Position numbers and translations under genes: made by a program. From a virus: a stretch of 37,211 bases of DNA. Location of the stretch: positions 1 through 37,211 of IMG/VR virus record IMGVR_UViG_3300045988_151330; one strand, given 5' to 3'. Positions 209 to 35,523 of the stretch are shown here, in pieces (position 1 is the stretch's first letter; each line of letters begins with the position of its first letter). Under the pieces are notes generated by a model that was not told the origin of the DNA, did not search any database, and worked only from the letters and a program-made list of their open reading frames with translations.

Positions 209-1324
209 TTATTTCACATAATTATTAATCAAATTAGTAACATCTGCCTCTTGTTCCTCGTCAAGGTGAGTGTATAAATCGAGTACCATTTTAGTTGAAT
301 GATGCCCCATAATTTCTTGAGCCTTTTTTACTTTTACACCTGAATAATACAATGTAGTGCAGAAGGTATGCCTTAATTGATGAGCAGTAAAATGAATATG
401 TGGTTTTATTTTATTTTTGTCTTCAATTTCTTTATTAAGTTCATCGATATATTGATTACAAGCTTTTATAAAGCTGTTCATTGATTCTCTAAATGAAGTT
501 TCAGACATCATACCTCCATTATACATAGGAAATAAATATTTAGTTTGTGCTTCTTTGCAACGACGTTCGAGAATTTCTGATATTTTATCAATAATTGGTA
601 TCTTTCTATCATCGCCATTTTTTGTGCCCTTTAAAACTGCTTGATTGTGTTTAAAATAGATTGCCCTATCTATCAAAATAAAATTACTTTTTACTTGATT
701 TTTTTCAAGAGGGATTAGTTCTTCACGTCGTATGCCTGTATAAAGAAAAGTCATAATCATATCACCATATTTGTGAGTTTCAGCCGTGTTTTCAATAACG
801 GAACGTTCAAAATCTGTTAGGGGGCGTTTTTCTTTTGATTTAAATTTTGGTACTTTAAGATTTGAAGCAACGTTTTTATAAATAAACTCATTTTCCATAG
901 CAAAATTTAAAATAGATTTAATGTAATTTACCATTTTTCTAATGGTGTCGGTTAAACCATCTTCCACTTTTGTATTTATCAATTCTTGAATCTGGTATGC
1001 TTTAAGCATTTTTATCGGGATATATCCTAAAGTAGGGTAGACATGAAGCCTTAGAATACGTTCAATGCTTTGTTGGGTGTTGTATTCTAAGGTTGGTTTT
1101 AAAACCTGATACCATTTGTCTCCGATTTCTTTAAAAGTAGCATTATCATTGTTTAATTCAATCCCTTTATGGTACATTACCTTTAATGACGTTAATTTTT
1201 CATCTAATTCTTTGGTGGTTGAAGCATACACATATTTTCTAAGTTGCTTGCCTTTTTCGTTTTTGCCAACCACAATATACGCAGAATATATTCCATCGGC
1301 TCTTTTAGTATAGTTTTTTGCCAT
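209..1324 (-). CDS. int: Tyrosine site-specific integrase
   Basis: 371 aa. C-terminal catalytic motifs HQLRHTFCTT...GHHSTKMVLDLYTHL (R..HxxR..Y). Sits next to attL and is transcribed toward it. Confidence 0.9.
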   Translation of the reverse strand: MAKNYTKRADGIYSAYIVVGKNEKGKQLRKYVYASTTKELDEKLTSLKVMYHKGIELNNDNATFKEIGDKWYQVLKPTLEYNTQQSIERILRLHVYPTLGYIPIKMLKAYQIQELINTKVEDGLTDTIRKMVNYIKSILNFAMENEFIYKNVASNLKVPKFKSKEKRPLTDFERSVIENTAETHKYGDMIMTFLYTGIRREELIPLEKNQVKSNFILIDRAIYFKHNQAVLKGTKNGDDRKIPIIDKISEILERRCKEAQTKYLFPMYNGGMMSETSFRESMNSFIKACNQYIDELNKEIEDKNKIKPHIHFTAHQLRHTFCTTLYYSGVKVKKAQEIMGHHSTKMVLDLYTHLDEEQEADVTNLINNYVK

Positions 1325-12676: not shown

Positions 12677-13093
12677 ATGACAGCTAAGGAAGAATTATTA
12701 CAATATAAATATGCAAGAGAAAAGGTTGAAGAAACTTTAGAAGAATATCAGAAATATAAAACAAGAGCCGAAAAGATGACATCAATAATATCAGATATGC
12801 CACGAGGGACAAGCAATTCTGATAAAGTGGCAGACAATGCGATTAAAATGGCTGATTTATCTGTAGAATACGAAAAAAGATGGCTGGAAGCTGAAAATAA
12901 GAAACTGGAAATAGAAAAGAATATAGACTTAATAGAAGAACCGTATAGAACTTTATTACATAAAAGATATGTGCAAGGACTAAATTTTGAAAAAATTGCT
13001 GATGAAATGGGATATTCCTATGTTAGAATTACACATTTACACGGAGAGGCTTTAATTGAATATGATAAGTTGACAACTCATGACAAGACATGA
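12677..13093 (+). CDS. ArpU-family late transcriptional regulator (sigma-70 region-4-like)
   Basis: 138 aa. C-terminal YRTLLHKRYVQGLNFEKIADEMGYSYVRITHLHGEAL. Sits directly upstream of the packaging genes. Confidence 0.6.
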   Translation: MTAKEELLQYKYAREKVEETLEEYQKYKTRAEKMTSIISDMPRGTSNSDKVADNAIKMADLSVEYEKRWLEAENKKLEIEKNIDLIEEPYRTLLHKRYVQGLNFEKIADEMGYSYVRITHLHGEALIEYDKLTTHDKT

Positions 13094-19094: not shown

Positions 19095-19127
19095 GGGCAG
19101 AGCTTAAAAACTCTGCCCTCAATTTTT
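19095..19127 (+). terminator. Rho-independent terminator after the capsid gene
   Basis: GGGCAGAG-cttaaaaa-CTCTGCCC followed by TCAATTTTT. Confidence 0.6.
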
Positions 19128-22293: not shown

Positions 22294-23679
22294 ATGGCTA
22301 ATTTAAGTAAAGAAGACACAGCAAAAATCGATAATGCAAAGAAAAAATATGCAGAGGCTCAAGCTAAAGGCGATAAAGCAGGAATGGAGTCAGCACACAG
22401 AGAGGCAGAATCAGTAAGAGCAGGATATGGATACTCTGGAGGAGCGGACGGAAGTCAGAATATATCGCTAGGAAATCAAGAACCAGATTGGACTGGTAAC
22501 GGTGGAAAATCAAGCAGAAACAGTAATAGTAATAATTCAACATCGAGTTTTACATATCAGGACGATTTAGAAAGACTAAAAAGACTTCAACAAAAAGCAA
22601 CGGCAAATGAGCTTAAAGCACAAAAGGAGAAAACATTACAGGCTTTAGCTGAACAAGAAGCCACGGTAAAGCCAACGTATCAAAATCAAAGAAACCTAGC
22701 ATCTTCAAATTCTCAAAAAGGTGCTAGGTCTTTTAGTGAGTATTTGGCTAGTAGAGGGTTAACAAATAGTGGTGCAGCAGCACAAGGGGAAATGAACAGA
22801 TTGTCAACTCTTCAAAATAATTTAGGAACAATAGATACAAATGAAACAAATACATTGAATGAAATAGCAAGGGCTAGAGCAAATGCTAAAAGTGATTATG
22901 CTTCTAATTTGGCTACTGCAAATTCAAAGATAGAAGCAGAATATTTTAATAATCTATTGCAAGAAAATCAAAGACAAAGGTTGATAGATGAGCAATTAAA
23001 GCAACAATCTATGCAACAGTATGCAAATGATTATCGAGCACAAATAAATAGCTTGTTAGCCCAAGGATATAGTCCAAATAGTAGAGAAGTTTTACAATTA
23101 TCAGCACTTAGAGGCGATAAAATAGCGAATAACATAAACAATGCAACAAATCCAAGCAATGCACTGGCTTCAATTCAAGCAGGGAATATAAACTATAATA
23201 ATGCTGCGGCATTAGGTTGGACTGTAGAACAAGCAAATCAATATTATAACAACTACTTGGCAATGCAACAAGCAGAAGCAGAAAAGGAAGCAAGACAGCA
23301 AGAATTTGAAAATTGGGTAAAAAGACAACAATTAGCTAATGATACTGCGCAAACACAGTACAATATAAATAAACCATATAGTCAATCTACAGGAAATGCA
23401 AACACGACAAAACTATCAACTTATAGCGATATAATTGATAATAATTATTTATCAGAAGGAAGCTTTTTGGCAGATAGTGAGAAATTGTTAGATTATATTC
23501 AAAGTGAAAATGAAAGTGGAAGAATGAGTGACAATGATGCTTTGTCCTTAATGGCCTTATATGGAATTGGACCTTATACAGATGTTAAAAATCAAAATAC
23601 TGTAGATTCATCAAAAACAAAAAAAGAACAGAATGCAACTTTAATGCCTAGAAACGTGCAAAATCAGTTAAGGGGGTAG
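22294..23679 (+). CDS. Q/N/S-rich low-complexity virion protein (internal/ejection-protein candidate)
   Basis: 461 aa. RBS AGGAGGTG. Confidence 0.5.
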   Translation: MANLSKEDTAKIDNAKKKYAEAQAKGDKAGMESAHREAESVRAGYGYSGGADGSQNISLGNQEPDWTGNGGKSSRNSNSNNSTSSFTYQDDLERLKRLQQKATANELKAQKEKTLQALAEQEATVKPTYQNQRNLASSNSQKGARSFSEYLASRGLTNSGAAAQGEMNRLSTLQNNLGTIDTNETNTLNEIARARANAKSDYASNLATANSKIEAEYFNNLLQENQRQRLIDEQLKQQSMQQYANDYRAQINSLLAQGYSPNSREVLQLSALRGDKIANNINNATNPSNALASIQAGNINYNNAAALGWTVEQANQYYNNYLAMQQAEAEKEARQQEFENWVKRQQLANDTAQTQYNINKPYSQSTGNANTTKLSTYSDIIDNNYLSEGSFLADSEKLLDYIQSENESGRMSDNDALSLMALYGIGPYTDVKNQNTVDSSKTKKEQNATLMPRNVQNQLRG

Positions 23680-23684
23680 AAGAT

Positions 23685-26600
23685 ATGCCTTTGGATTGGA
23701 GAAAAATAAGAAGTACAGGAACCACTACCCAAGGTTCGAGCAAATCACGATTAAACTGGGATGAAATCAGGAATAAAACAACAAAACTAGATGCAGCAAG
23801 TATTGATGAAAATAAAGCCAGAGTAAATAACACTACTGCAAATTCAACGAAAGAAAATCAAAGTAATAAGATGTTGTATCAAACAAAAGCAATAAATACT
23901 ATTGCACCAACCAATAGAAAATTTGCACAATCTTTACCGAAAATCGTAAATAGCAGCAAAGTAAAAGATGCTGGAGTTGGAGAATTGATTACACAGCCAA
24001 ATGCTGGTGATGATTTTTCACAGCAAGATAAGAAATTGTTTATAGAAAACATAAAGGACAGAGAACTTAAAAGAGAAGAACTAAAATCAAAAGGATTAAA
24101 ACAAGGAACGGCAGATTTGTTATCTAAAATATATAGAAAGCAATTAAATAATGGTAAAAACATTGTTGATAGCACAAATGTAATACAAAGTTCAATAGGT
24201 AGAGCTATGGGGCAACAGCCTAGCGATAGAGGAAAATTATTAAAAGTACCAGAAAATATGAAAGATAATCTCAGAAGATTTAAAGATGGATATCAATTTG
24301 GAGATATAACTACAACAACACTTGAAAATTTTGGCGATTCTGCAGCGACCTTAGGAAGTACTGCATTAGAAATTCCAACAAGAATAGCAAAGGGAATATT
24401 TAGCGTATCAGAAGGAATTGCAAATGCAGGAGCATCTGCAATTGCAGGGGCAGCAGATTTAATAGGCCAAGATGAGTATGCGAATGCTTTAAGAAAAAGA
24501 ATAGCAGTAGGCACGCCCTTCGTAAAAACACATAATTTATTAGAAAGTACAGCCGATAAATTAGATACAAATTCATTTAGTGGAAAATTATTGGATTCAG
24601 CGACCGAAGGTGTTGGACAATCTGGTGGACAAATGGCAGTAGGCGCTGCACTTGGTAAATTCGGTGAAGTACCAATAAAATTCGGTGATCATGTTTTAAA
24701 TATGCCAACGACAGCATTTGCTACTGGAATGGGAAGTGCTGCCGCAGAAACATATGCCAAGGCAGATGAACAGTTAGGTGGACTAGAAAATGCAACAGGA
24801 AAAGAAAAGCTACAAATGGCACTTAGAATATTAGGTGGAGGAGCTATAGAGGGAACTACAGAGGGACTATTTGGCTTACTAGGTGTAGGTGGAACAGATA
24901 TAACGGACGAGTTTGCCCAAAAAGCTGTAGCTAGAGCAGAAAATGCTTTTCAAAAGCAATTAACTAAGATACTTGTTGCTGGTGGTGGTGAAGCAGCAGA
25001 AGAATTTATTTCTTATGCTGGCAATTATTTAATGGATAATTATGCGAACAAATTTGGAAAACTGGACTTTTCTGAAAAATGGAATTGGGATGATGTAATG
25101 CAAGAAATGGCATCAGCATTTATATCATCTGGAATAAGTCAAGGGGCGACGTCTGTAATTCAAATAAATAAAGTTACTCAAAATGCAGTTCAATTAGCAG
25201 AAACAGAACAAGGAAGACAATTGACGCCACAAGAAATATCAGAGATAAGAAATTCTGTTGCAGATGAAGTATTAGGAGCAAGAGAAGAATTAGAAAGTCT
25301 TCATAAGGATACTAATATCAGCGAAAACTCATCAAATATTGACCAGATTTCTCAAAAGAATGTACAAAATGTATCAAATTTGGAAAGCAATCAGCAAATG
25401 AGTATATCTGATGAACAGAACAACCAAGCTACAGTAACTAATGAAATACAAACGTTTGTGGAAAATAGAAATAAAATTGCACCAGGTTTGAATGTCGAAA
25501 TGGATAATACATTGAAAACAGATGGTGTAATAATAAAAAATTCCGATGGAACAAGAACAATGAAAATAAATCCAAATTCAACAAGAGCTTATGAGTTTGT
25601 GGCGGTTCATGAAATGTTACATGATTTAGAGGGAACGCAAGAATATTCTGAATTGCAAAAATATCTACAAGATAGAGCTACTTCACATGAAAAATTTGAG
25701 GAAGCAAAACAAACTATTACAGACAAGTATACACAATATTATCAAGCAAACGGCTTAGATATGTCTAATCTAAATATGGAAGTTGAAACGGTTAACGATA
25801 TGACAGCACAAGCTTTAGGCAATCAACAATTTTTAAATGAATTAGCCGGCAAAAAGCCGAATGTGTTTATGAGAATGTACAATTGGGTTAAAAATGTATT
25901 ATTTGACGGTCAAAAAACAGGTAAAAGTTTTTCAAAAAGAAGAACAGATAACAAATACTTAAATGAGCTTAAAAAGAAATTTGAAACAGCATATAATACG
26001 GTGTATAAGGGAAAGGGAGAAACTAAGTATTCAATTGCAGGACAAATTGGTATGCAAAATGCAATAAATAATGACATTAGATTTCAAAAATTAGAAAACA
26101 ACTTAAATAAAGCACAAACAATGGCACAAAACGGAATAGACAACGAATATATTAGACAAAATACCAATTGGTTTCAAGACAAAAATGGAGATTGGAAATT
26201 CGAATTTTCGGATAAGGATATGAAGTTAAAACCTAACATTCAATTAAAAGAAAATACAACATATAAATTGGGTAATATATTAGAACATGATTTGTTATTT
26301 ACAATATATCCTGAGCTAGCTAAATGTAATGTAAAAGTTCAAAAAATGGAAAATGCGGGTGGATCATACAACAGGGAGAATAACTTAATAAGAATTAATT
26401 CAAAATTAAAGAATAGTGAAGAAATTCAAAATACATTGATTCATGAAATACAACATGCCATCCAAAAAATTGAAGGTTTTGAAAAGGGAAAAGGTTTTAA
26501 AACAAGTAAATTAGCTTATTATAATAGTCTTGGAGAAATAGAGGCTGATAATACAAAAAATAGGTATGTGGCAGAAAAACAAGGAATTTTAAACAGAGAT

Positions 26601-29600
26601 TTAGTTCCACCCGAAAGTTCAAAAACAAATCCGATACATTCTAAGCTTGATAATTACTTGAATAATAGAACAATCTTTGATAAAATCAAAGATGGAATAT
26701 ATAAATATCTTAAAGATAGAGGTGTTACAAATGATTCGTTTTATGAAGAACTTGATTTGGAAAATACGAATGAGAATACTGGATTGGTGGTACGAGGAAG
26801 ACGTGTAGAAGGACTAGAAAATTCTAGTTCTTTTTCTTTATCTAAAACAGACAACACTAAACCAACTGCTAATACTGATATAAGGTATTCTCAAACCAAC
26901 AATGAATGGTCAAAGTATTTAAAAGAAAATTGGGACTTGATGCCGAATGCAAAGAAGACTTTTGGATTTCCTACGAACGAACAACTGCAAGTAATGGATA
27001 ATAAAAAAATAGCTGAAGGTGTAGATACTTTGAATTTAAAAGAAAATAAAATTAAATCTTTAGAAGATATAGCTAGTATGTCGGAAGAAGATATTAGAAA
27101 AGGTGTAAATTATAAGCACAAAAAAGATAAAGATACACAATATGAGAGAAAATTTTTTAAAAATGCAGAAACGTCTAAAGTGATAAGTCAAGAAGTTAAA
27201 GATAGTATAGATATTACTACCTATGAAAGGCAATCAAATGAACAAACACTAGAAAAAGCTAAAATTAAGTTAGATGAACAAGGAGATAAACTTATAAAAC
27301 AATGGGAAACTAAAACTAAAAACTTCACAGCTGAAGATGTTGCAATTGGAGCAATACTTATAGAGAGATATCAGCAAATGGGAGATACAGAGTCTGCTGT
27401 AAATGTTGTTCAAAAATTAGCTGATATGGGAACTGAAGTAGGGCGTGCTGTTCAAATGTTTTCTATATTTCAAAGATTAACTCCTGAAGCCATGATGGTT
27501 TATCAGCAAAGAAAATTAAACGATGTATTTAAAGAAATATCACAAAGAAAAACCGGAGAATGGGTAGAAGCTAACAAAGAAAAATTTAAGCTTACCGCAG
27601 AAGATAATCAATTTATTACTGAACAAGTTGAAAAAGCTCAACAAGCAACATCAGAAAGAGAGAAACAAATAGAACTTGCTAAAATTGAAAAAAGAGTAAA
27701 TGCTAAACTTCCGCCAGAAAGAGGGCAAACAATTAAAGCAATTAGAAGAATGGCAATGTTGTTTAATCCTAAAACGCAAGTAAGAAATGTGGTTGGTAAT
27801 GCTCTTATAATGCCTGTAAATGATGTAGCTGATATAATTGGAACACAAATAGATAAGTTGATAGCTAAAAAAACAGGGGTAAGAACAACAAATTATGCCG
27901 ATTTAAAAGAAAAAGGTAAAGGATTTAAAAAAGGTATTACTGAAGCTGTACAAGATTATAAAATGGGAATAAGAACAGAACCTTCTGGAAGCAAGTATGA
28001 GTTTAATTTTGGTGGCAAATCATTTAATGAAAACACTAAATCAAAAATATTAAATGCTATAAATAATAAATTAAATGGTATAGAAAATTTATTAGGTGCT
28101 GTAATGAGTGGTGGAGATAGACCTTTCTATGAGGCCGTTTTTAATAATTCGCTACAAGGACAAATGAAAGCTAACAATGCAACAACACCTACTACAGAAA
28201 TGATCGACATAGCGGTTAATGAGGCTCTATCTAGAACTTGGAATGATAACAATAGTTATACAGAAGCTGTTTTAGGGATAAGAAGACAAATGAATAAACT
28301 AAATGTAGGTGGTTTTGGTTTGGGAGATTTAATAATACCTTTTGCTAAAACCCCAGCAAATCTAACTAAGGCAATAGTTGAATATAGTCCACTTGGAGCG
28401 GTTGAAGCAATTATCAATTATTCTGATATGAAAAAAGCTATATCAAGAGGCGAAATGACAGCACAACAACAAAAGAATTTTGTAAATAGTACTTCGAAAG
28501 CGATAGCAGGTTCAATTTTATATTTAATAGCGGGTGCTCTAGCACAAAGTGGTGCAGTGACTGGTTCTGCAGATGATGACAAAGATGTTAAAAATTTTGA
28601 ACAGAATGTACTAGGGATACAGCCTTATTCAATAAAAATAGGAGACAAAACTTTCACCTATAGTTGGGCAAATCCATTAAATGCACCATTAGCTATAATG
28701 GCAGATACATACAAAATGAGTAAAGAAAAAGCTGGTTTATTTGATATTTTAACAAATGGCTTTAAAGTGGCTGGTGAGGTTGTGGTTGACAACTCGTTTT
28801 TGCAAGGAATAAAAGAATTGTTTGAAGCCGACTCAATATCTGAGGGAGTGGTTAATGCGATAGTGGATATGCCCGCTCAATTTGTACCTACTTTTCTATC
28901 TCAGTTTGCTACATTAGGAGATAAAACTAAAAGACAAACATTTGAATACGGAGATAAATTAAAATCTACTATGAATCAAATAAAAGCTAAAATCCCAGGG
29001 GCGAAGAATACCCTAGCACCTACAGTTAATACTTTCGGAGAAGAAGTTGAAAATTACGGTGGAGACAATAATGCATTTAATGTCTTTCTAAACCCTGCAA
29101 ATATAAGTAAAGCAAACGCAACTGACACGCAAAAAGAATTATATGCATTATATGAAGCAACAAAAGATAAAACTATATTTCCAATGCAAGCTCCATACTA
29201 TTTAAGCGATGATGGCGAGAAAGTAAATCTTTCTAGTAATGAACGCTCAGAATATCAAAAACGAAGTGGAGAATATGTATCAAAAGAATTACATGCTTTG
29301 TTTGATAGTGAGTTTTATAAGACTTTAGAGAACGAAGATAAAGTTGAAGTAGTAAATAAAATTGTTAAAGATGCTAACACTCATGCAAAATCTAAATGGA
29401 TTACAACTAAAGCTACAGAAGAATTACAAAAAACACAAGATGAATTAAAAGATGTTCCAATGGTAGATTACTACAATGCTTGGCTTGCTCAAAAAGATGC
29501 AGAAGGAAAGAAAAATACATTTGGTAAAACAATATCGGGTACGAAGAAAAAAGCTAAAATCAAGGCAATAAATGAGGCTGTTGATGACGATTTAACACCT

Positions 29601-29642
29601 AGACAAAAGAAAATACTATATGGAATATTTAATGTGGATTAG
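23685..29642 (+). CDS. Giant (1985 aa) multidomain virion protein with two HExxH zincin-like motifs; polyvalent ejected-protein candidate
   Basis: VAVHEMLHDLEG and LIHEIQHAIQKIEGFEKGKGF. Strong RBS AAGGGGGT. Sits in the structural block. Confidence 0.7.
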   Translation: MPLDWRKIRSTGTTTQGSSKSRLNWDEIRNKTTKLDAASIDENKARVNNTTANSTKENQSNKMLYQTKAINTIAPTNRKFAQSLPKIVNSSKVKDAGVGELITQPNAGDDFSQQDKKLFIENIKDRELKREELKSKGLKQGTADLLSKIYRKQLNNGKNIVDSTNVIQSSIGRAMGQQPSDRGKLLKVPENMKDNLRRFKDGYQFGDITTTTLENFGDSAATLGSTALEIPTRIAKGIFSVSEGIANAGASAIAGAADLIGQDEYANALRKRIAVGTPFVKTHNLLESTADKLDTNSFSGKLLDSATEGVGQSGGQMAVGAALGKFGEVPIKFGDHVLNMPTTAFATGMGSAAAETYAKADEQLGGLENATGKEKLQMALRILGGGAIEGTTEGLFGLLGVGGTDITDEFAQKAVARAENAFQKQLTKILVAGGGEAAEEFISYAGNYLMDNYANKFGKLDFSEKWNWDDVMQEMASAFISSGISQGATSVIQINKVTQNAVQLAETEQGRQLTPQEISEIRNSVADEVLGAREELESLHKDTNISENSSNIDQISQKNVQNVSNLESNQQMSISDEQNNQATVTNEIQTFVENRNKIAPGLNVEMDNTLKTDGVIIKNSDGTRTMKINPNSTRAYEFVAVHEMLHDLEGTQEYSELQKYLQDRATSHEKFEEAKQTITDKYTQYYQANGLDMSNLNMEVETVNDMTAQALGNQQFLNELAGKKPNVFMRMYNWVKNVLFDGQKTGKSFSKRRTDNKYLNELKKKFETAYNTVYKGKGETKYSIAGQIGMQNAINNDIRFQKLENNLNKAQTMAQNGIDNEYIRQNTNWFQDKNGDWKFEFSDKDMKLKPNIQLKENTTYKLGNILEHDLLFTIYPELAKCNVKVQKMENAGGSYNRENNLIRINSKLKNSEEIQNTLIHEIQHAIQKIEGFEKGKGFKTSKLAYYNSLGEIEADNTKNRYVAEKQGILNRDLVPPESSKTNPIHSKLDNYLNNRTIFDKIKDGIYKYLKDRGVTNDSFYEELDLENTNENTGLVVRGRRVEGLENSSSFSLSKTDNTKPTANTDIRYSQTNNEWSKYLKENWDLMPNAKKTFGFPTNEQLQVMDNKKIAEGVDTLNLKENKIKSLEDIASMSEEDIRKGVNYKHKKDKDTQYERKFFKNAETSKVISQEVKDSIDITTYERQSNEQTLEKAKIKLDEQGDKLIKQWETKTKNFTAEDVAIGAILIERYQQMGDTESAVNVVQKLADMGTEVGRAVQMFSIFQRLTPEAMMVYQQRKLNDVFKEISQRKTGEWVEANKEKFKLTAEDNQFITEQVEKAQQATSEREKQIELAKIEKRVNAKLPPERGQTIKAIRRMAMLFNPKTQVRNVVGNALIMPVNDVADIIGTQIDKLIAKKTGVRTTNYADLKEKGKGFKKGITEAVQDYKMGIRTEPSGSKYEFNFGGKSFNENTKSKILNAINNKLNGIENLLGAVMSGGDRPFYEAVFNNSLQGQMKANNATTPTTEMIDIAVNEALSRTWNDNNSYTEAVLGIRRQMNKLNVGGFGLGDLIIPFAKTPANLTKAIVEYSPLGAVEAIINYSDMKKAISRGEMTAQQQKNFVNSTSKAIAGSILYLIAGALAQSGAVTGSADDDKDVKNFEQNVLGIQPYSIKIGDKTFTYSWANPLNAPLAIMADTYKMSKEKAGLFDILTNGFKVAGEVVVDNSFLQGIKELFEADSISEGVVNAIVDMPAQFVPTFLSQFATLGDKTKRQTFEYGDKLKSTMNQIKAKIPGAKNTLAPTVNTFGEEVENYGGDNNAFNVFLNPANISKANATDTQKELYALYEATKDKTIFPMQAPYYLSDDGEKVNLSSNERSEYQKRSGEYVSKELHALFDSEFYKTLENEDKVEVVNKIVKDANTHAKSKWITTKATEELQKTQDELKDVPMVDYYNAWLAQKDAEGKKNTFGKTISGTKKKAKIKAINEAVDDDLTPRQKKILYGIFNVD

Positions 29643-29693
29643 AGAGCCTTTTTAGGTTCTCTTTTCTATATAAAAAGAAAAGGAGGGAGAGGC

Positions 29694-30740: not shown

Positions 30741-32789
30741 ATGATAAGAATAAAAAATAATATTACTCCTAGGTTGCCTGATGAGTACCAGGAAGTAGAG
30801 TACATCCAAAGTACAGGAACGCAATATATAAATACTAATTATAAAATAACTTTAAATACTGAATTTGTTGTCGATGGAATGATAATTGGCGGTGAATATT
30901 TTGCAATAGCAGGGAAATATGGGTATTATATAAGTGGAATATTTGGCCACGGTAGCACTTTAAAAATTTGTGCAAGATGGAGAAATGGGTCATCTTCTAA
31001 TATAACAGTAACAACTAGCGAAGATGTTGGAGAGAATAGGCACACATTTAAGATAAATAAAACTGCTTTTTATATGGATAATGTGAATGTTGGGAACTTT
31101 AATAGCACATACAATTTTAGCGCAACAGATGATATTTATATTTTTGGATTAGGTGAAGCTTCAATGTCAGTAGGTAGACTATATTCTATGACAATTTCTG
31201 ACAATGGTGTTTTAGTTCGTAAGTTAATACCTTGTTATCGCAAATCAGATAATGAAATAGGTTTGTATGATTTGATAAATAATGTGTTTTATGCTAATGC
31301 TGGCACAGGCACATTTATAATGGGAACAGAGGTAAATAAGCCATACGGCAATTTAATGCCTAACTTTATTGCCAACTGGTTGCCTAGTGAATATCAGCCC
31401 GTTGAATATATTGAAAGTACTGGGACTCAATATATAAATACAAATGTGTTGGCAGATACAGTGGGGAGATTTGTTATAGACGCGGAATTTACGGAAATAT
31501 CAAATGAAATTAACGGAAGTATAAACAGTGGCGTCGCTTTAGATATAGGCATCATATCAAACAAATTCTTTTTAAGAAATGGTGCGCCAAATGATGTGAC
31601 AGCTAGTGCAGATATAAATAGACATGAGTTTGAAGTTGATACTATAAATTCTAAATGTTATATAGATGAGACAGTGGTGTCAACTGCAAGTGGGTCTAAG
31701 CCCAATTTTAACTTATATCTATTTGCGAGAAACAATGAAAGTTTAGGAACAACTACAACTGCATATTTCTGTAAGCAAAAATTATATTCATGTAAAATAT
31801 ACAATCTAAACAATACATTAATTCGTGATTTCATACCTTGTTACCGAAAATTAGACAATACAGCTGGTTTATACGATTTAGCAAATGGAGTATTTTATGC
31901 AAATCAAGGAACTGGCGTGTTTTTAATGGGCGAAGTAGTAGGAAAAGCTGATGTAAATTTAATTCCTATGATTGGTAGTAAAAAGCTGTTAAAAAGGTAC
32001 GTTGGAGAAAAACTAGTATACGGAGAAAAAGAAGCCGAATATGAACAGCAAGTCAACTATGCAATGATATATGACAATTCTTTAAATGATGCAGAACTGA
32101 ATAAATGTGTAAATAGTCCTAGTGGAGGTTGGACTTCGTGTTATTATTATAGTAGTTCATATTCTGCATGGGAGAGCAATGCTAATTATCTAAAGGCTTC
32201 CGTTCGTGCAAAATCATCATGCACTGCAAACTGGAGAACAACTAAGAAAATAAAATTAGATGATTATGCAGCTGTAATCATGCAACTTAAACACTCTTAC
32301 GTTGAGGCTGAAAACGTTACTTTTACTAGTGATACTACAGGTTTAAGAAATTATGATATTTGCTGGGTTGGGGTACAGGATAGAGACAGAACAAACGATG
32401 TTACGCACGAATGCATAGCAGATACTACTAATATAACGGGTGAATATTATCTTTCACAATATTCGAATGGAGACGTTAGTGCATTTGAGTATTATATTTA
32501 TAATTCGGCATTATTTAAAAAAGATGATTGGCAGACGCTATGCTCCAAAGCGGGATTAAATCCTACAGATTATAATAACGAAAATACACTATGTAAAGAC
32601 ACAACTGCTATTTCGACAATATTATCTAATCAGTCAGCTGTGCAGTATATGATATATAACTGTACTGGATCTTTTATGGCTTATTTTGTTGTGAGAGAAA
32701 CATGCTTAACAGCTTTAAATAATAGTCCGTATAAAACATTAATTCAAGCAAACAAACACTGGAATAAATTTTTAAACATGGTAGCATAG
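30741..32789 (+). CDS. Receptor-binding/tail-fibre protein with a tandemly duplicated ~200-aa domain
   Basis: Repeat units start at RLPDEYQEVEYIQSTGTQYINTN and WLPSEYQPVEYIESTGTQYINTN. Both contain IPCYRK(S/L)DN..GLYDL.N.VFYAN.GTG.F.MG. A distinct Cys-rich C-terminal domain follows. Confidence 0.55.
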   Translation: MIRIKNNITPRLPDEYQEVEYIQSTGTQYINTNYKITLNTEFVVDGMIIGGEYFAIAGKYGYYISGIFGHGSTLKICARWRNGSSSNITVTTSEDVGENRHTFKINKTAFYMDNVNVGNFNSTYNFSATDDIYIFGLGEASMSVGRLYSMTISDNGVLVRKLIPCYRKSDNEIGLYDLINNVFYANAGTGTFIMGTEVNKPYGNLMPNFIANWLPSEYQPVEYIESTGTQYINTNVLADTVGRFVIDAEFTEISNEINGSINSGVALDIGIISNKFFLRNGAPNDVTASADINRHEFEVDTINSKCYIDETVVSTASGSKPNFNLYLFARNNESLGTTTTAYFCKQKLYSCKIYNLNNTLIRDFIPCYRKLDNTAGLYDLANGVFYANQGTGVFLMGEVVGKADVNLIPMIGSKKLLKRYVGEKLVYGEKEAEYEQQVNYAMIYDNSLNDAELNKCVNSPSGGWTSCYYYSSSYSAWESNANYLKASVRAKSSCTANWRTTKKIKLDDYAAVIMQLKHSYVEAENVTFTSDTTGLRNYDICWVGVQDRDRTNDVTHECIADTTNITGEYYLSQYSNGDVSAFEYYIYNSALFKKDDWQTLCSKAGLNPTDYNNENTLCKDTTAISTILSNQSAVQYMIYNCTGSFMAYFVVRETCLTALNNSPYKTLIQANKHWNKFLNMVA

Positions 32790-32805: not shown

Positions 32806-33426
32806 ATGGGATATTATCCAAAAATAGAATGGGACGATAATGCGACGACAACTGAAAAATTGAGAGCAATTTATAATTTACTCAATTGGCTTTTATTTGA
32901 AATGTCACAAGGAAGAGTAAAAACTAATAAAGAAGAATTGATTGAAAATATAAAAAACACAAAAGAAGAATTAAACCTACCAATTTCAATAGCTTTTGTA
33001 AAATTAGCTGAGAGTGGTAATATAGATGAAGCAACAGCAAGCGAAAATGCAAACTTGTTTTTACCTTGGGCAACTAATACAAATTATAAAATTGGAGATT
33101 TGAGAACATATCCACAAGAGAAAGAAATTCAAACTGCTGAAGGTGAAACAGTTACCGTCGCAGAAAAGGTATTGTACAAATGTTTACAGACCCATACTTC
33201 ACAAGATAATTGGACTCCTGATGTTAGTTCATCATTATGGAAGAGCTTGAGCGTGAATGAAAATGGTATTTCCGAATGGTCACAACCTATATCTAGTGTA
33301 GATGCTTATAATACAGGTGATGAAGTAATGTATAATGGAGTACATTATAGATCTATCATTGATAATAATGTTTGGGCCCCTGATGCGTATCCTCAAGGTT
33401 GGGAGGTAGTTGCAGATGACAATTGA
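32806..33426 (+). CDS. Small protein with two CBM5/12-like carbohydrate-binding repeats
   Basis: W..NT.YKIGD...Y and WS.P....AYNTGDEVMYNGVHYRS...NVWAPD..PQGWE. Confidence 0.5.
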   Translation: MGYYPKIEWDDNATTTEKLRAIYNLLNWLLFEMSQGRVKTNKEELIENIKNTKEELNLPISIAFVKLAESGNIDEATASENANLFLPWATNTNYKIGDLRTYPQEKEIQTAEGETVTVAEKVLYKCLQTHTSQDNWTPDVSSSLWKSLSVNENGISEWSQPISSVDAYNTGDEVMYNGVHYRSIIDNNVWAPDAYPQGWEVVADDN

Positions 33427-33957: not shown

Positions 33958-34598
33958 TAGAATATTGCAGAGCTCAACTTGGCAAGCCATATTGGTGGGG
34001 CACATTCGGACAAGTTGCTTCGGAGAGCCTTTTAAGACAAAAATCAGCACAATATCCTAAATACTATACATCCACTGATTTTGTTAAGCAATACGGTCAA
34101 AAAGTGCACGATTGTGTAGGCTTAATTAAGGGATACTTATGGTGCGAAAATGCAAATTCTTATCCTTTATATAATGCAAGTCAAGACAAAGACGTATCAG
34201 GAATGAAAGCAAATTGCAGCGAGCGAGGAAGTTTAGACACAATACCAGATATTCCTGGTGTGCTCGTTTTTATGCCTGGCCATGTAGGAATTTATATTGG
34301 AAAAGGCAAAGTAATTGAAGCAAGAGGACACGCTTATGGCGTTGTAGAAACCAATTTGACAGGTAGAGGCTGGAAAGAATGGGGAAAACTTGATTGGATA
34401 AAGTACGAGGAGGGAAATACGATGTTTGAAGCTGGACAAGGCAAGGAAGCAATAGAATACTTAGTTGAACAAGGCAGGATAACAAATAAAGAACAGGCAT
34501 TACAGAAGCTTGATTTAATCAAAAATGAAGAATGGACCTATATCAAATGGGCTAATGATGTCAAAAAATTAGAAAAGCAAATCAACAAAAAAAGTTAA
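33939..34598 (+). CDS. NlpC/P60-family endolysin. The conserved N-terminus (from 33939) has no in-frame canonical start; the first in-frame start is GTG at 34104
   Basis: Frame-0 reading EYCRAQLGKPYWWGTFGQ...HDCVGLIKGY...GHVGIYIG...EARGHAYG (Cys/His/His). An ATG with a strong RBS lies at 33935 but in a different frame. Confidence 0.6.
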   Translation, partial: KQIFGLVEYCRAQLGKPYWWGTFGQVASESLLRQKSAQYPKYYTSTDFVKQYGQKVHDCVGLIKGYLWCENANSYPLYNASQDKDVSGMKANCSERGSLDTIPDIPGVLVFMPGHVGIYIGKGKVIEARGHAYGVVETNLTGRGWKEWGKLDWIKYEEGNTMFEAGQGKEAIEYLVEQGRITNKEQALQKLDLIKNEEWTYIKWANDVKKLEKQINKKS

Positions 34599-34617: not shown

Positions 34618-34645
34618 TTGACAAATTAAAAATAACGTGTATAAT
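34618..34645 (+). promoter_or_regulatory. Consensus sigma-A promoter
   Basis: TTGACA (34618-34623), 16 nt, TATAAT (34640-34645). Confidence 0.55.
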
Positions 34646-34666
34646 GTAATCAAAGGAGGGAGACAT

Positions 34667-35029
34667 ATGTTAAGTGAGTTTGGAAAATTCTGTCGTAGGC
34701 TAAGAATCGAAAGAGGAGAGCTGTTAAAAAATATGGCACAAAAGTTACAGGTAACGTCTTCTTATTTATCGGCGGTAGAGACAGGAAAAAGGGCAGTTCC
34801 AGAAACTTGGATAAAGAAGATCTCCGATGAATACAATTTGAGTCCAAAAGAAGTAGAAGAATTAAAAAGAGCAAGAGATATTTCTTCACAGGTAATAAAA
34901 GTTGACTTTAATAATAAAAGTGACTCTGATAAGGAAACTTTATTAAAACTAGCAAGAAGTTTTGATAGTTTTAGTTCAGAAACAAAAGCTAAGTTAATTG
35001 AAATAATCAAGGAGGAAAACAATAAGTGA
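34667..35029 (+). CDS. XRE-family HTH regulator (ImmR/CapH-like)
   Basis: FGKFCRRLRIERGELLKNMAQKLQVTSSYLSAVETGKRAVP. RBS GGAGGGAG. Stop overlaps the start of the next gene. Confidence 0.65.
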   Translation: MLSEFGKFCRRLRIERGELLKNMAQKLQVTSSYLSAVETGKRAVPETWIKKISDEYNLSPKEVEELKRARDISSQVIKVDFNNKSDSDKETLLKLARSFDSFSSETKAKLIEIIKEENNK

Positions 35030-35523
35030 GTTATAAAACGGTTCCTAGATCGAAAGCTCAAATAAGAGGCTTTGTTAATAGGGTAAGAGAAATATTTGGA
35101 ATAGGTCCCAAAGATAAACTTCCTGTGCTAAGCATATTAGAGGCCTTATGTAGTGGCCTTGATGATGGTGGGTATACTTTAGAAATAGTACCTATTGACA
35201 GCATGCGTGAGAGATATGCTGAAACTATACCAGAAAGTAAAATAGTGAGGATAAGACAGGATGTATACGATAGAGAAAATCCCAGAGATTTATTTACAGT
35301 ATGTCATGAAATAGGACACATATTACTTCATTCTAATGATACTGTTTCTTTTGCTAGAGAAAATGAACATGTGAAGACTTATGAAAATCCTGAATGGCAA
35401 GCTAATACATTTGCAGCTGAATTTTTAGCTCCTGCAAATATGTGTAGAAAAATGTCGATAGAGGAAATCATGAATACATATGGTTGTTCTAGGCAAGTTG
35501 CAATTATTCAACACGAAGGCTAA
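35026..35523 (+). CDS. ImmA/IrrE-family (DUF955) zinc metallopeptidase (CapP-like)
   Basis: HEIGH motif in LFTVCHEIGHILLHS plus a downstream AAEFLAP. GTG start behind AAGGAGG. Confidence 0.7.
   Translation: MSYKTVPRSKAQIRGFVNRVREIFGIGPKDKLPVLSILEALCSGLDDGGYTLEIVPIDSMRERYAETIPESKIVRIRQDVYDRENPRDLFTVCHEIGHILLHSNDTVSFARENEHVKTYENPEWQANTFAAEFLAPANMCRKMSIEEIMNTYGCSRQVAIIQHEG

Follow-up and report, generated by a model that had tools for sequence, protein, structure and literature searches.

The stretch of viral DNA held as IMG/VR record IMGVR_UViG_3300045988_151330 (37,211 nucleotides (nt), analysed at its full length and called the window hereafter) raises the question of what kind of protein is encoded by a single giant open reading frame (ORF) that takes up 16% of it. 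The frame, 23685..29642 on the plus strand, is uninterrupted, starts with ATG and comprises 1985 codons (5958 nt), as an initial annotation made from the sequence had described. The same annotation placed the ORF among structural genes, which is borne out by the terminase, portal, major head protein and fibre genes that flank it, and proposed that its product is a polyvalent protein, i.e. a giant multidomain protein packaged in the phage head and injected together with the DNA. We consider it likely that the ORF encodes a polyvalent internal virion protein (IVP) of a temperate, probably short-tailed phage integrated in a human-gut Clostridia bacterium. The assignment to the polyvalent class is made because the protein has an LPD23 domain scoring above cutoff, two conserved zincin motifs and a setting among virion genes, and because its relatives carry polyvalent domains at the same position; packaging and injection are presumed.

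The two HExxH motifs pointed out in the initial annotation are genuine features of the protein, with VAVHEMLHDLEG placing the first at amino acids (aa) 642-646 and LIHEIQHAIQKIEGF the second at aa 920-924. Only 13 histidines are present in the whole protein, for which 0.0065 HExxH matches are expected, and two or more HExxH were found in 0 of 20,000 residue shuffles; from these shuffles and from the conservation in homologues, chance matches were rejected. Across 121 distinct homologous rows H642/E643/H646 are 100% conserved and E701 97%, and for the second motif the corresponding figures are 97% for H920/E921/H924, 97% for E930 and 90% for E951 (97 distinct rows). An AlphaFold2 model of aa 590-1065 (mean predicted local distance difference test score, pLDDT, 78.7) shows the expected strands as well as HExxH helices: at the first motif the helix comes after three strands, and the second motif lies in a helix (322-341 of the model) with pLDDT above 90. 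The best fold matches of this model in the PDB (Foldseek) were PprI/IrrE, selecase, MATCAP and abylysin, all of them zincins, at E-values that are not significant.

The label SprT/Wss1-like, which the initial annotation had attached to the first motif, belongs to the second, where the Pfam SprT-like and DUF6782 models match over aa 878-938. When the surrounding cassette was excised, DUF6782 scored 29.2 bits (cutoff 27) and SprT-like 27.0 bits (cutoff 25.6); with the whole protein as query both fell just under their cutoffs (26.2 and 24.3 bits, respectively). No Pfam family, including the polyvalent-protein metallopeptidase models, reached its threshold at the first motif, the best being Peptidase_M13 with 16.5 bits against a cutoff of 24.5.

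The second motif and the LPD23 domain lie together in a segment that is exchanged as a unit among closely related prophages. At the DNA level, sister prophage L005 follows the window for 12.3 kb at 97.4% identity as far as aa ~775, is unrelated to it across nt 26010-26848 and resumes at 93.9% identity beyond; the breakpoints in two further sister prophages, L003 and L004, are nearly the same (left 25996-26014, right 26849-27043). Unrelated cassettes occupy the same slot in the sister prophages, namely LPD3 and ART-PolyVal, and close relatives carry ART-PolyVal, LPD3, LPD38, MuF_C, PBECR5 and RadC at this position; for one relative the source gives the name 'PolyVal ADP-Ribosyltransferase'. The initial annotation had considered that undescribed effector modules might be among the domains. 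What we find is one cassette of ~280 aa, with domains already in Pfam, and two modules without a family model, B and C, outside it. This segment alone is the variable effector cassette, and ~85% of the giant protein is conserved scaffold or carrier. No functional study of DUF6782, PF18838 (LPD23) or PLxRFG was found in the literature.

Near its right-hand end the cassette contains a short linker whose coding sequence (Table 1) is the same in the window and in L003 (~12902-12931) and has one mismatch in L005 (~12983-13012), the flanks being unrelated. This island holds a short palindrome, ACTAGAA..TTCTAGT, and its recurrence at the sequence level suggests that it may act as a microhomology joint for payload shuffling inside the ORF. 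The pattern [YF]S[ILQ] occurs six times in the giant ORF against 1.5 expected by shuffling, a statistic that is indicative only, the motif having been defined post hoc. Four of the six occurrences are at module borders (aa 111, 782, 1050 and 1068; window ~24015, 26028, 26832 and 26886), where they could be protease sites, linker signatures or coincidence.

The large C-terminal module (C-module) is what connects the protein to known internal virion proteins. It is predicted by AlphaFold2 with a mean pLDDT of 71.8, and no Pfam, PHROG or NCBIfam model matches it. An exhaustive HMMER search recovered 11,092 representatives of 50%-identity clusters at E <= 1e-3, of which 3,537 remain at the stricter E <= 1e-30. 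In the 149 top-ranked representatives, which are ~550-3300 aa long, the C-module is at or near the C-terminus, with a median of 35 residues after it, and the first-HExxH domain is present in 63 of the same 149. Shared motifs are RLTPEGQL, AWRYxAMLGNPKTHxRN, ExEDxxF and PFKKTPxNIxKxGxEYSPxGL; the LIIPFAKTPANL segment, which begins at aa 1549 and had looked conserved to the initial annotation, is the last of these, and PFIKTPMN stands at the aligned position in Desulfovibrio phage ProddE. By eye, and without profile support, PFxKTP also resembles the PLxRFG of Pseudomonas phage H66 gp60.

Searched with the C-module profile, the IVP-D ('internal virion protein D') of ProddE gave 70 bits and gp35 of Pelagibacter phage Gjalp 77 bits, with hhalign probabilities of 98.8% and 99.2%, respectively, over ~480 columns. 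Both phages belong to the Autographiviridae, and in both the matched gene lies between the tail-tube/IVP genes and the tail fibre gene, which is the position of T7 gp16. A Foldseek search of the C-module model against BFVD returned 47 matches at E <= 1e-3, some of which are C-termini of polyvalent proteins from gut viromes; the others include 'internal virion proteins' of Pelagibacter phage Eyrgjafa and of Synechococcus phages S-RIP1, S-CBP2 and S-CBP3, and a protein of cyanophage NATL2A-133. Nothing was found when the profile was searched with hmmsearch against T7 gp14, gp15 and gp16, H66 gp60 and phiRIO-1 gp37, or compared by hhalign with T7 gp15 and gp16, H66 gp60 and phiRIO-1 gp37. The module had no fold match in the PDB, and a phmmer search of the whole giant protein against PDB sequences gave only a chance match to oncomodulin. 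In sequence, the IVP-D of ProddE is itself unlike T7 gp16; the label 'gp16' therefore refers to its gene position. Judged from these sequence comparisons, the C-module has homologues at the gp16 position in several lineages of short-tailed phages, and membership of the T7 gp16 family proper is not supported.

The N-terminal third consists of a tail and module B. The initial annotation had read long Gly/Ala-rich segments of the protein as flexible; the composition stands (22-34% Gly plus Ala over aa 200-500), but the region is a conserved module and not a loose linker. Module B was found in 102 of the 149 C-module representatives (68%), always near the N-terminus, and its median start among the 187 proteins with module B is aa 112. 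The excised N-terminal 600 aa, tail and module B together, matched no family in PHROGs or Pfam. As for the tail, homologues P0008-P0013 align by BLASTP from ~aa 120 only, and P0032 aligns over aa 1-105. A W-x-x-I-R motif is duplicated at the extreme N-terminus (LDWRKIRS at aa 3-10 and LNWDEIRN at aa 23-30; window 23691-23774), and could be a packaging or targeting signal. A similar sequence, INWNEIERP, is found directly upstream of the C-module in distant homologues.

The surroundings of the giant ORF are those of a low-GC (~32%) prophage of ~37 kb, with a tyrosine integrase gene at one end of the window (209-1324, minus strand). Genes were recognised for the small and large terminase subunits, the portal, the major head protein, a collar-domain tail fibre, a collagen-like fibre, a CBM5/12 protein, an NlpC/P60 hydrolase, and a pair of helix-turn-helix (HTH) and Peptidase_M78 proteins. 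The giant ORF is situated between the tail-fibre genes and 3' of those for the portal and major head protein; it shares their strand and the tight ORF spacing of a late operon. Relatives 89-95% identical are found in human-gut Clostridia metagenome-assembled genomes, and on this sequence evidence the host of the prophage is a human-gut Clostridia bacterium.

Table 1 Features in and around the giant ORF (window coordinates). Module boundaries were drawn from BLASTP against 120 homologues, hidden Markov model searches and two AlphaFold models
Feature	Position (nt)	Strand	Residues (aa)	Remarks
Shine-Dalgarno sequence AGGGGG	23671..23676	+		8 nt 5' of the giant-ORF ATG; graded strong
N-terminal tail, polar	23685..24041	+	1-119	common only to closest relatives
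Module B, conserved, Gly/Ala-rich	24042..25469	+	120-595	no Pfam/PHROG model
Region of first HExxH	25482..25919	+		H642/E643/H646 and E701 conserved
Exchangeable cassette	26010..26848	+	776-1054	no DNA similarity to prophages otherwise 94-97% identical
LPD23 domain (PF18838)	26097..26231	+	805-849	Pfam 43.9 and 46.7 bits, cutoff 27
Region of second HExxH	26262..26564	+		DUF6782 and SprT-like matches; pLDDT above 90
Linker GLENSSSFSL, coded by GGACTAGAAAATTCTAGTTCTTTTTCTTT	26811..26840	+		~30-nt island common to unrelated cassettes
C-module, mostly helical	27072..29639	+	1130-1985 (~850 aa)	core aa ~1337-1890 homologous to gp16-position proteins of Autographiviridae
LIIPFAKTPANLTKAIVEYSPLG, among the most conserved C-module motifs	28329..28397	+		consensus PFKKTPxNIxKxGxEYSPxGL
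Only transmembrane-like hydrophobic stretch, AIAGSILYLIAGALAQSGAV	28488..28574	+	1602-1630 (19-29 residues)	family consensus GLTGTGLxxLG
Terminator-like hairpin	29641..29662	+		overlaps last two bases of the stop codon (29640-29642)

A protein of this length, with a largely helical C-terminal half and a hydrophobic segment, encoded among tail-fibre genes, might instead belong to a long-tailed phage and serve there as the tape measure or in some other role in tail length or at the tail tip, with the Gly/Ala-rich and helical regions forming the ruler and the zincins degrading the cell wall only. Peptidase domains are also common in the tape measure proteins of Gram-positive phages, which speaks for this explanation. 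We nevertheless regard it as quite improbable, and the judgement of the initial annotation that the protein is not tape-measure-like is upheld. The giant protein has no tape-measure match in Pfam, PHROGs or NCBIfam, and at full length it matched nothing at all in the latter two. Searches of PHROGs and Pfam assigned no gene of the window to a tape-measure, tail-tube or tail-sheath family, the interval between the major head protein and lysis genes included, and no chaperone gene was recognised; frameshifted chaperone genes were not looked for, and several ORFs of the late stretch match no family. Homologues of the C-module are found among the internal virion proteins of T7-like phages with short tails, a group that lacks a tape measure, and in sister phages ADP-ribosyltransferases, i.e. 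cytoplasmic effectors, take the place of the cassette, with changes in length that would not be tolerated in a ruler. The tape measure was rejected on the missing family matches, the IVP homology and these length changes taken together; a tail fibre was also considered and rejected.

It is also conceivable that the prophage is defective and that the ORF survives in it as a domesticated or decaying remnant that has lost its role in infection and serves, for example, as a host-captured weapon against incoming elements. Host-captured polyvalent proteins are noted in Iyer 2017 (PMC5512222), and stand-alone LPD23-zincin genes adjoin CRISPR-Cas or NERD/RecQ genes. We hold this to be very improbable for the locus studied here, given that the prophage looks complete, its genes extending from the integrase to those for lysis, that the 6-kb ORF is intact, and that cassettes turn over between conserved flanks, which indicates ongoing selection. 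The copies of the protein tell against decay as well: an identical protein (P0001) was present on 16 contigs in the homologue listing and on 23 contigs read in the look-up of encoding contigs, and many relatives are on contigs of 36-42 kb, the size of a phage genome.

The reading of the ORF as a polyvalent internal virion protein has its own weak points. Packaging, ejection, cleavage and protease activity are predictions, for the giant protein as for its close relatives. The fold comparison of the aa 590-1065 model with the PDB gave no match at E <= 1e-3, the best E-value being 0.11, and the alignments were short. The predicted peptidases are the only assignable activities of the giant protein, and the 'disparate activities' expected of the class are documented in relatives. 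The short tail, which we consider likely, is deduced solely from the missing long-tail genes, and the neighbouring proteins of 139, 574, 461 and 682 aa match nothing. All of these points weigh against the interpretation that we prefer.

Polyvalent proteins of phages and conjugative elements were defined by such architecture and context by Iyer, Burroughs, Anand, de Souza and Aravind (Iyer 2017, PMC5512222). In their account, zincin-like metallopeptidases are the most frequent hub domain of the class and at times present in several copies, autoprocessing by the zincin is proposed, and processing of a precursor before packaging is argued from DdrB of phage P1. The giant protein resembles the class as portrayed there in being a giant multidomain prophage protein encoded beside virion genes, with zincin and LPD domains and with orthologues that show mosaic domain replacement. 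It differs in its carrier, a large C-terminal module without a family model. The passages of Iyer 2017 drawn on here name MuF, the portal and the virion RNA polymerase of N4 as carriers, none of which is the carrier in the giant protein, and no such C-terminal module appears in them. No homologue of the giant protein was traced to a conjugative element among the contexts covered: the prophage itself, a handful of related prophage loci, named phages, and two stand-alone cassette genes on chromosomes. Within the zincins, comparison with IrrE/PprI, ImmA (Peptidase_M78), SprT-like, DUF6782 and minigluzincin (selecase) proteins yields fold E-values that are not significant.

Another related protein is gp60 of Pseudomonas phage H66, corresponding to the giant structural protein of F116 ('PLxRFG domain-containing protein', 3787 aa), which also belongs to a temperate short-tailed phage and has an LPD23 plus zincin cassette; the match covers query aa 781-979 at ~26% identity. 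The annotation of H66 gp60 gives it as confirmed in virions by mass spectrometry, and it is interpreted as an IVP-D homologue that carries an intracellular enzyme (Hardies 2016, PMC4819975). Since it has the cassette in common with the giant protein, this annotation, like the homology of the C-module to annotated internal virion proteins, lends indirect support to packaging and delivery with the DNA. In contrast to the giant protein, it is twice as long, has a methylase and a Gram-negative host, and its C-terminal PLxRFG region has no detectable similarity to the C-module.

For T7 gp16 (IVP-D) and the extended IVP-D family, the criteria of Hardies 2016 and Swanson 2022 were followed. Like T7 gp16 of the ejectosome, the giant protein is a large helical protein, taken to be internal, with an N-terminal enzymatic domain and a putatively membrane-active C-terminal part; homologues of its C-module are encoded at the gp16 position in ProddE and Gjalp, and 'internal virion proteins' of cyanopodoviruses share the predicted fold. 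Unlike T7 gp16, it has no transglycosylase domain, and there is no sequence, profile or fold match between the two. The virion RNA polymerase of phage N4, gp50, is likewise a giant protein that is injected; it combines a zincin domain with a C-terminal part resembling IVP-D that carries an enzyme destined for the cytoplasm (Hardies 2016, PMC4819975, and Iyer 2017, PMC5512222). The giant protein differs from it in having no RNA polymerase module, and no sequence similarity was seen.

If the giant protein is a polyvalent internal virion protein, the following course of events can be proposed. It would be made late, alongside the head and tail proteins, and probably a few copies would be enclosed in the capsid. 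At infection the C-module, whose homology is established and whose function is proposed, would act as the carrier or ejection part, leaving the capsid via the portal and helping the DNA to cross the cell envelope. The N-terminal two thirds would then ride on it as cargo, for which there are precedents, T7 gp16 bearing a transglycosylase, N4 gp50 an RNA polymerase and H66 gp60 a methylase; internal virion proteins are known to host domains destined for the cytoplasm (Hardies 2016, PMC4819975). The short conserved linkers between cassettes, evident as a sequence pattern, may let related phages swap payloads by recombination.

The expression signals of the giant ORF are in keeping with its place in a tightly spaced gene series. 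The stop codon of the preceding ORF is at 23677-23679, directly behind the Shine-Dalgarno sequence (Table 1), and the giant ORF starts 5 nt later. A GC-rich terminator-like hairpin is also present at 19095-19118, directly 3' of the major head protein gene. The region has six terminator-like hairpins against 5.7 expected, which is not above chance, so that only their position is suggestive.

Neighbouring proteins of 139, 574, 461, 103 and 682 aa had no match in PDB sequences and/or among the tail and internal virion proteins of T7, ProddE and Gjalp. A gp14- or gp15-like neighbour was not recognised, the 461-aa upstream and 103-aa downstream proteins matching no known IVP, and no prohead protease gene was recognised among the annotated genes of the window. 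The 682-aa ORF (30741-32789), 3' of the collagen-like fibre gene, is a second mosaic region, inside which the DNA similarity to L003-L005 breaks down, especially at ~31362-32497; it probably codes for a receptor-binding or tail-tip protein, parts of which can be exchanged. A putative lysis region follows, with a 206-aa protein with two CBM5/12 repeats (32806-33426), two small ORFs and a 164-aa NlpC/P60 peptidase (34104-34598). The latter also weakly matches a 'minor tail protein' PHROG. Either of the two may be the endolysin and the other a virion-associated hydrolase.

Further downstream (34637-35523) an HTH protein of 130 aa is followed by a Peptidase_M78 (ImmA/IrrE-like) protein of 165 aa, which is the third zincin of the window and is unrelated to the giant ORF. 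The pair resembles the ImmR/ImmA-type repressor and anti-repressor protease pairs of integrative and conjugative elements and prophages. On longer contigs, one of them 100 kb in length, the prophage ends ~1 kb upstream of a GATase plus SIS (GlmS-like) gene (23995-25812 on contig L007), which is likely to be the integration neighbourhood.

The concept of polyvalent and injected proteins is already published, and the value of this locus is that of a good test case and not of a discovery. Specific to it are the gut-Clostridia prophage lineage, an abundant carrier module without a curated model and clean payload swapping with a 30-nt linker. The C-module is abundant in gut viromes, and with a curated model of it thousands of giant phage proteins now called 'hypothetical' would be better annotated. 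Because they act ahead of phage gene expression, injected phage proteins are prime candidates for counter-defence. With flanks 94-97% identical and different payloads (metalloprotease, ADP-ribosyltransferase and LPD3) in the same slot of the same predicted virion protein, the locus constitutes a natural experiment, in which the swapping of payloads makes it testable what each payload does and which host factor meets it.

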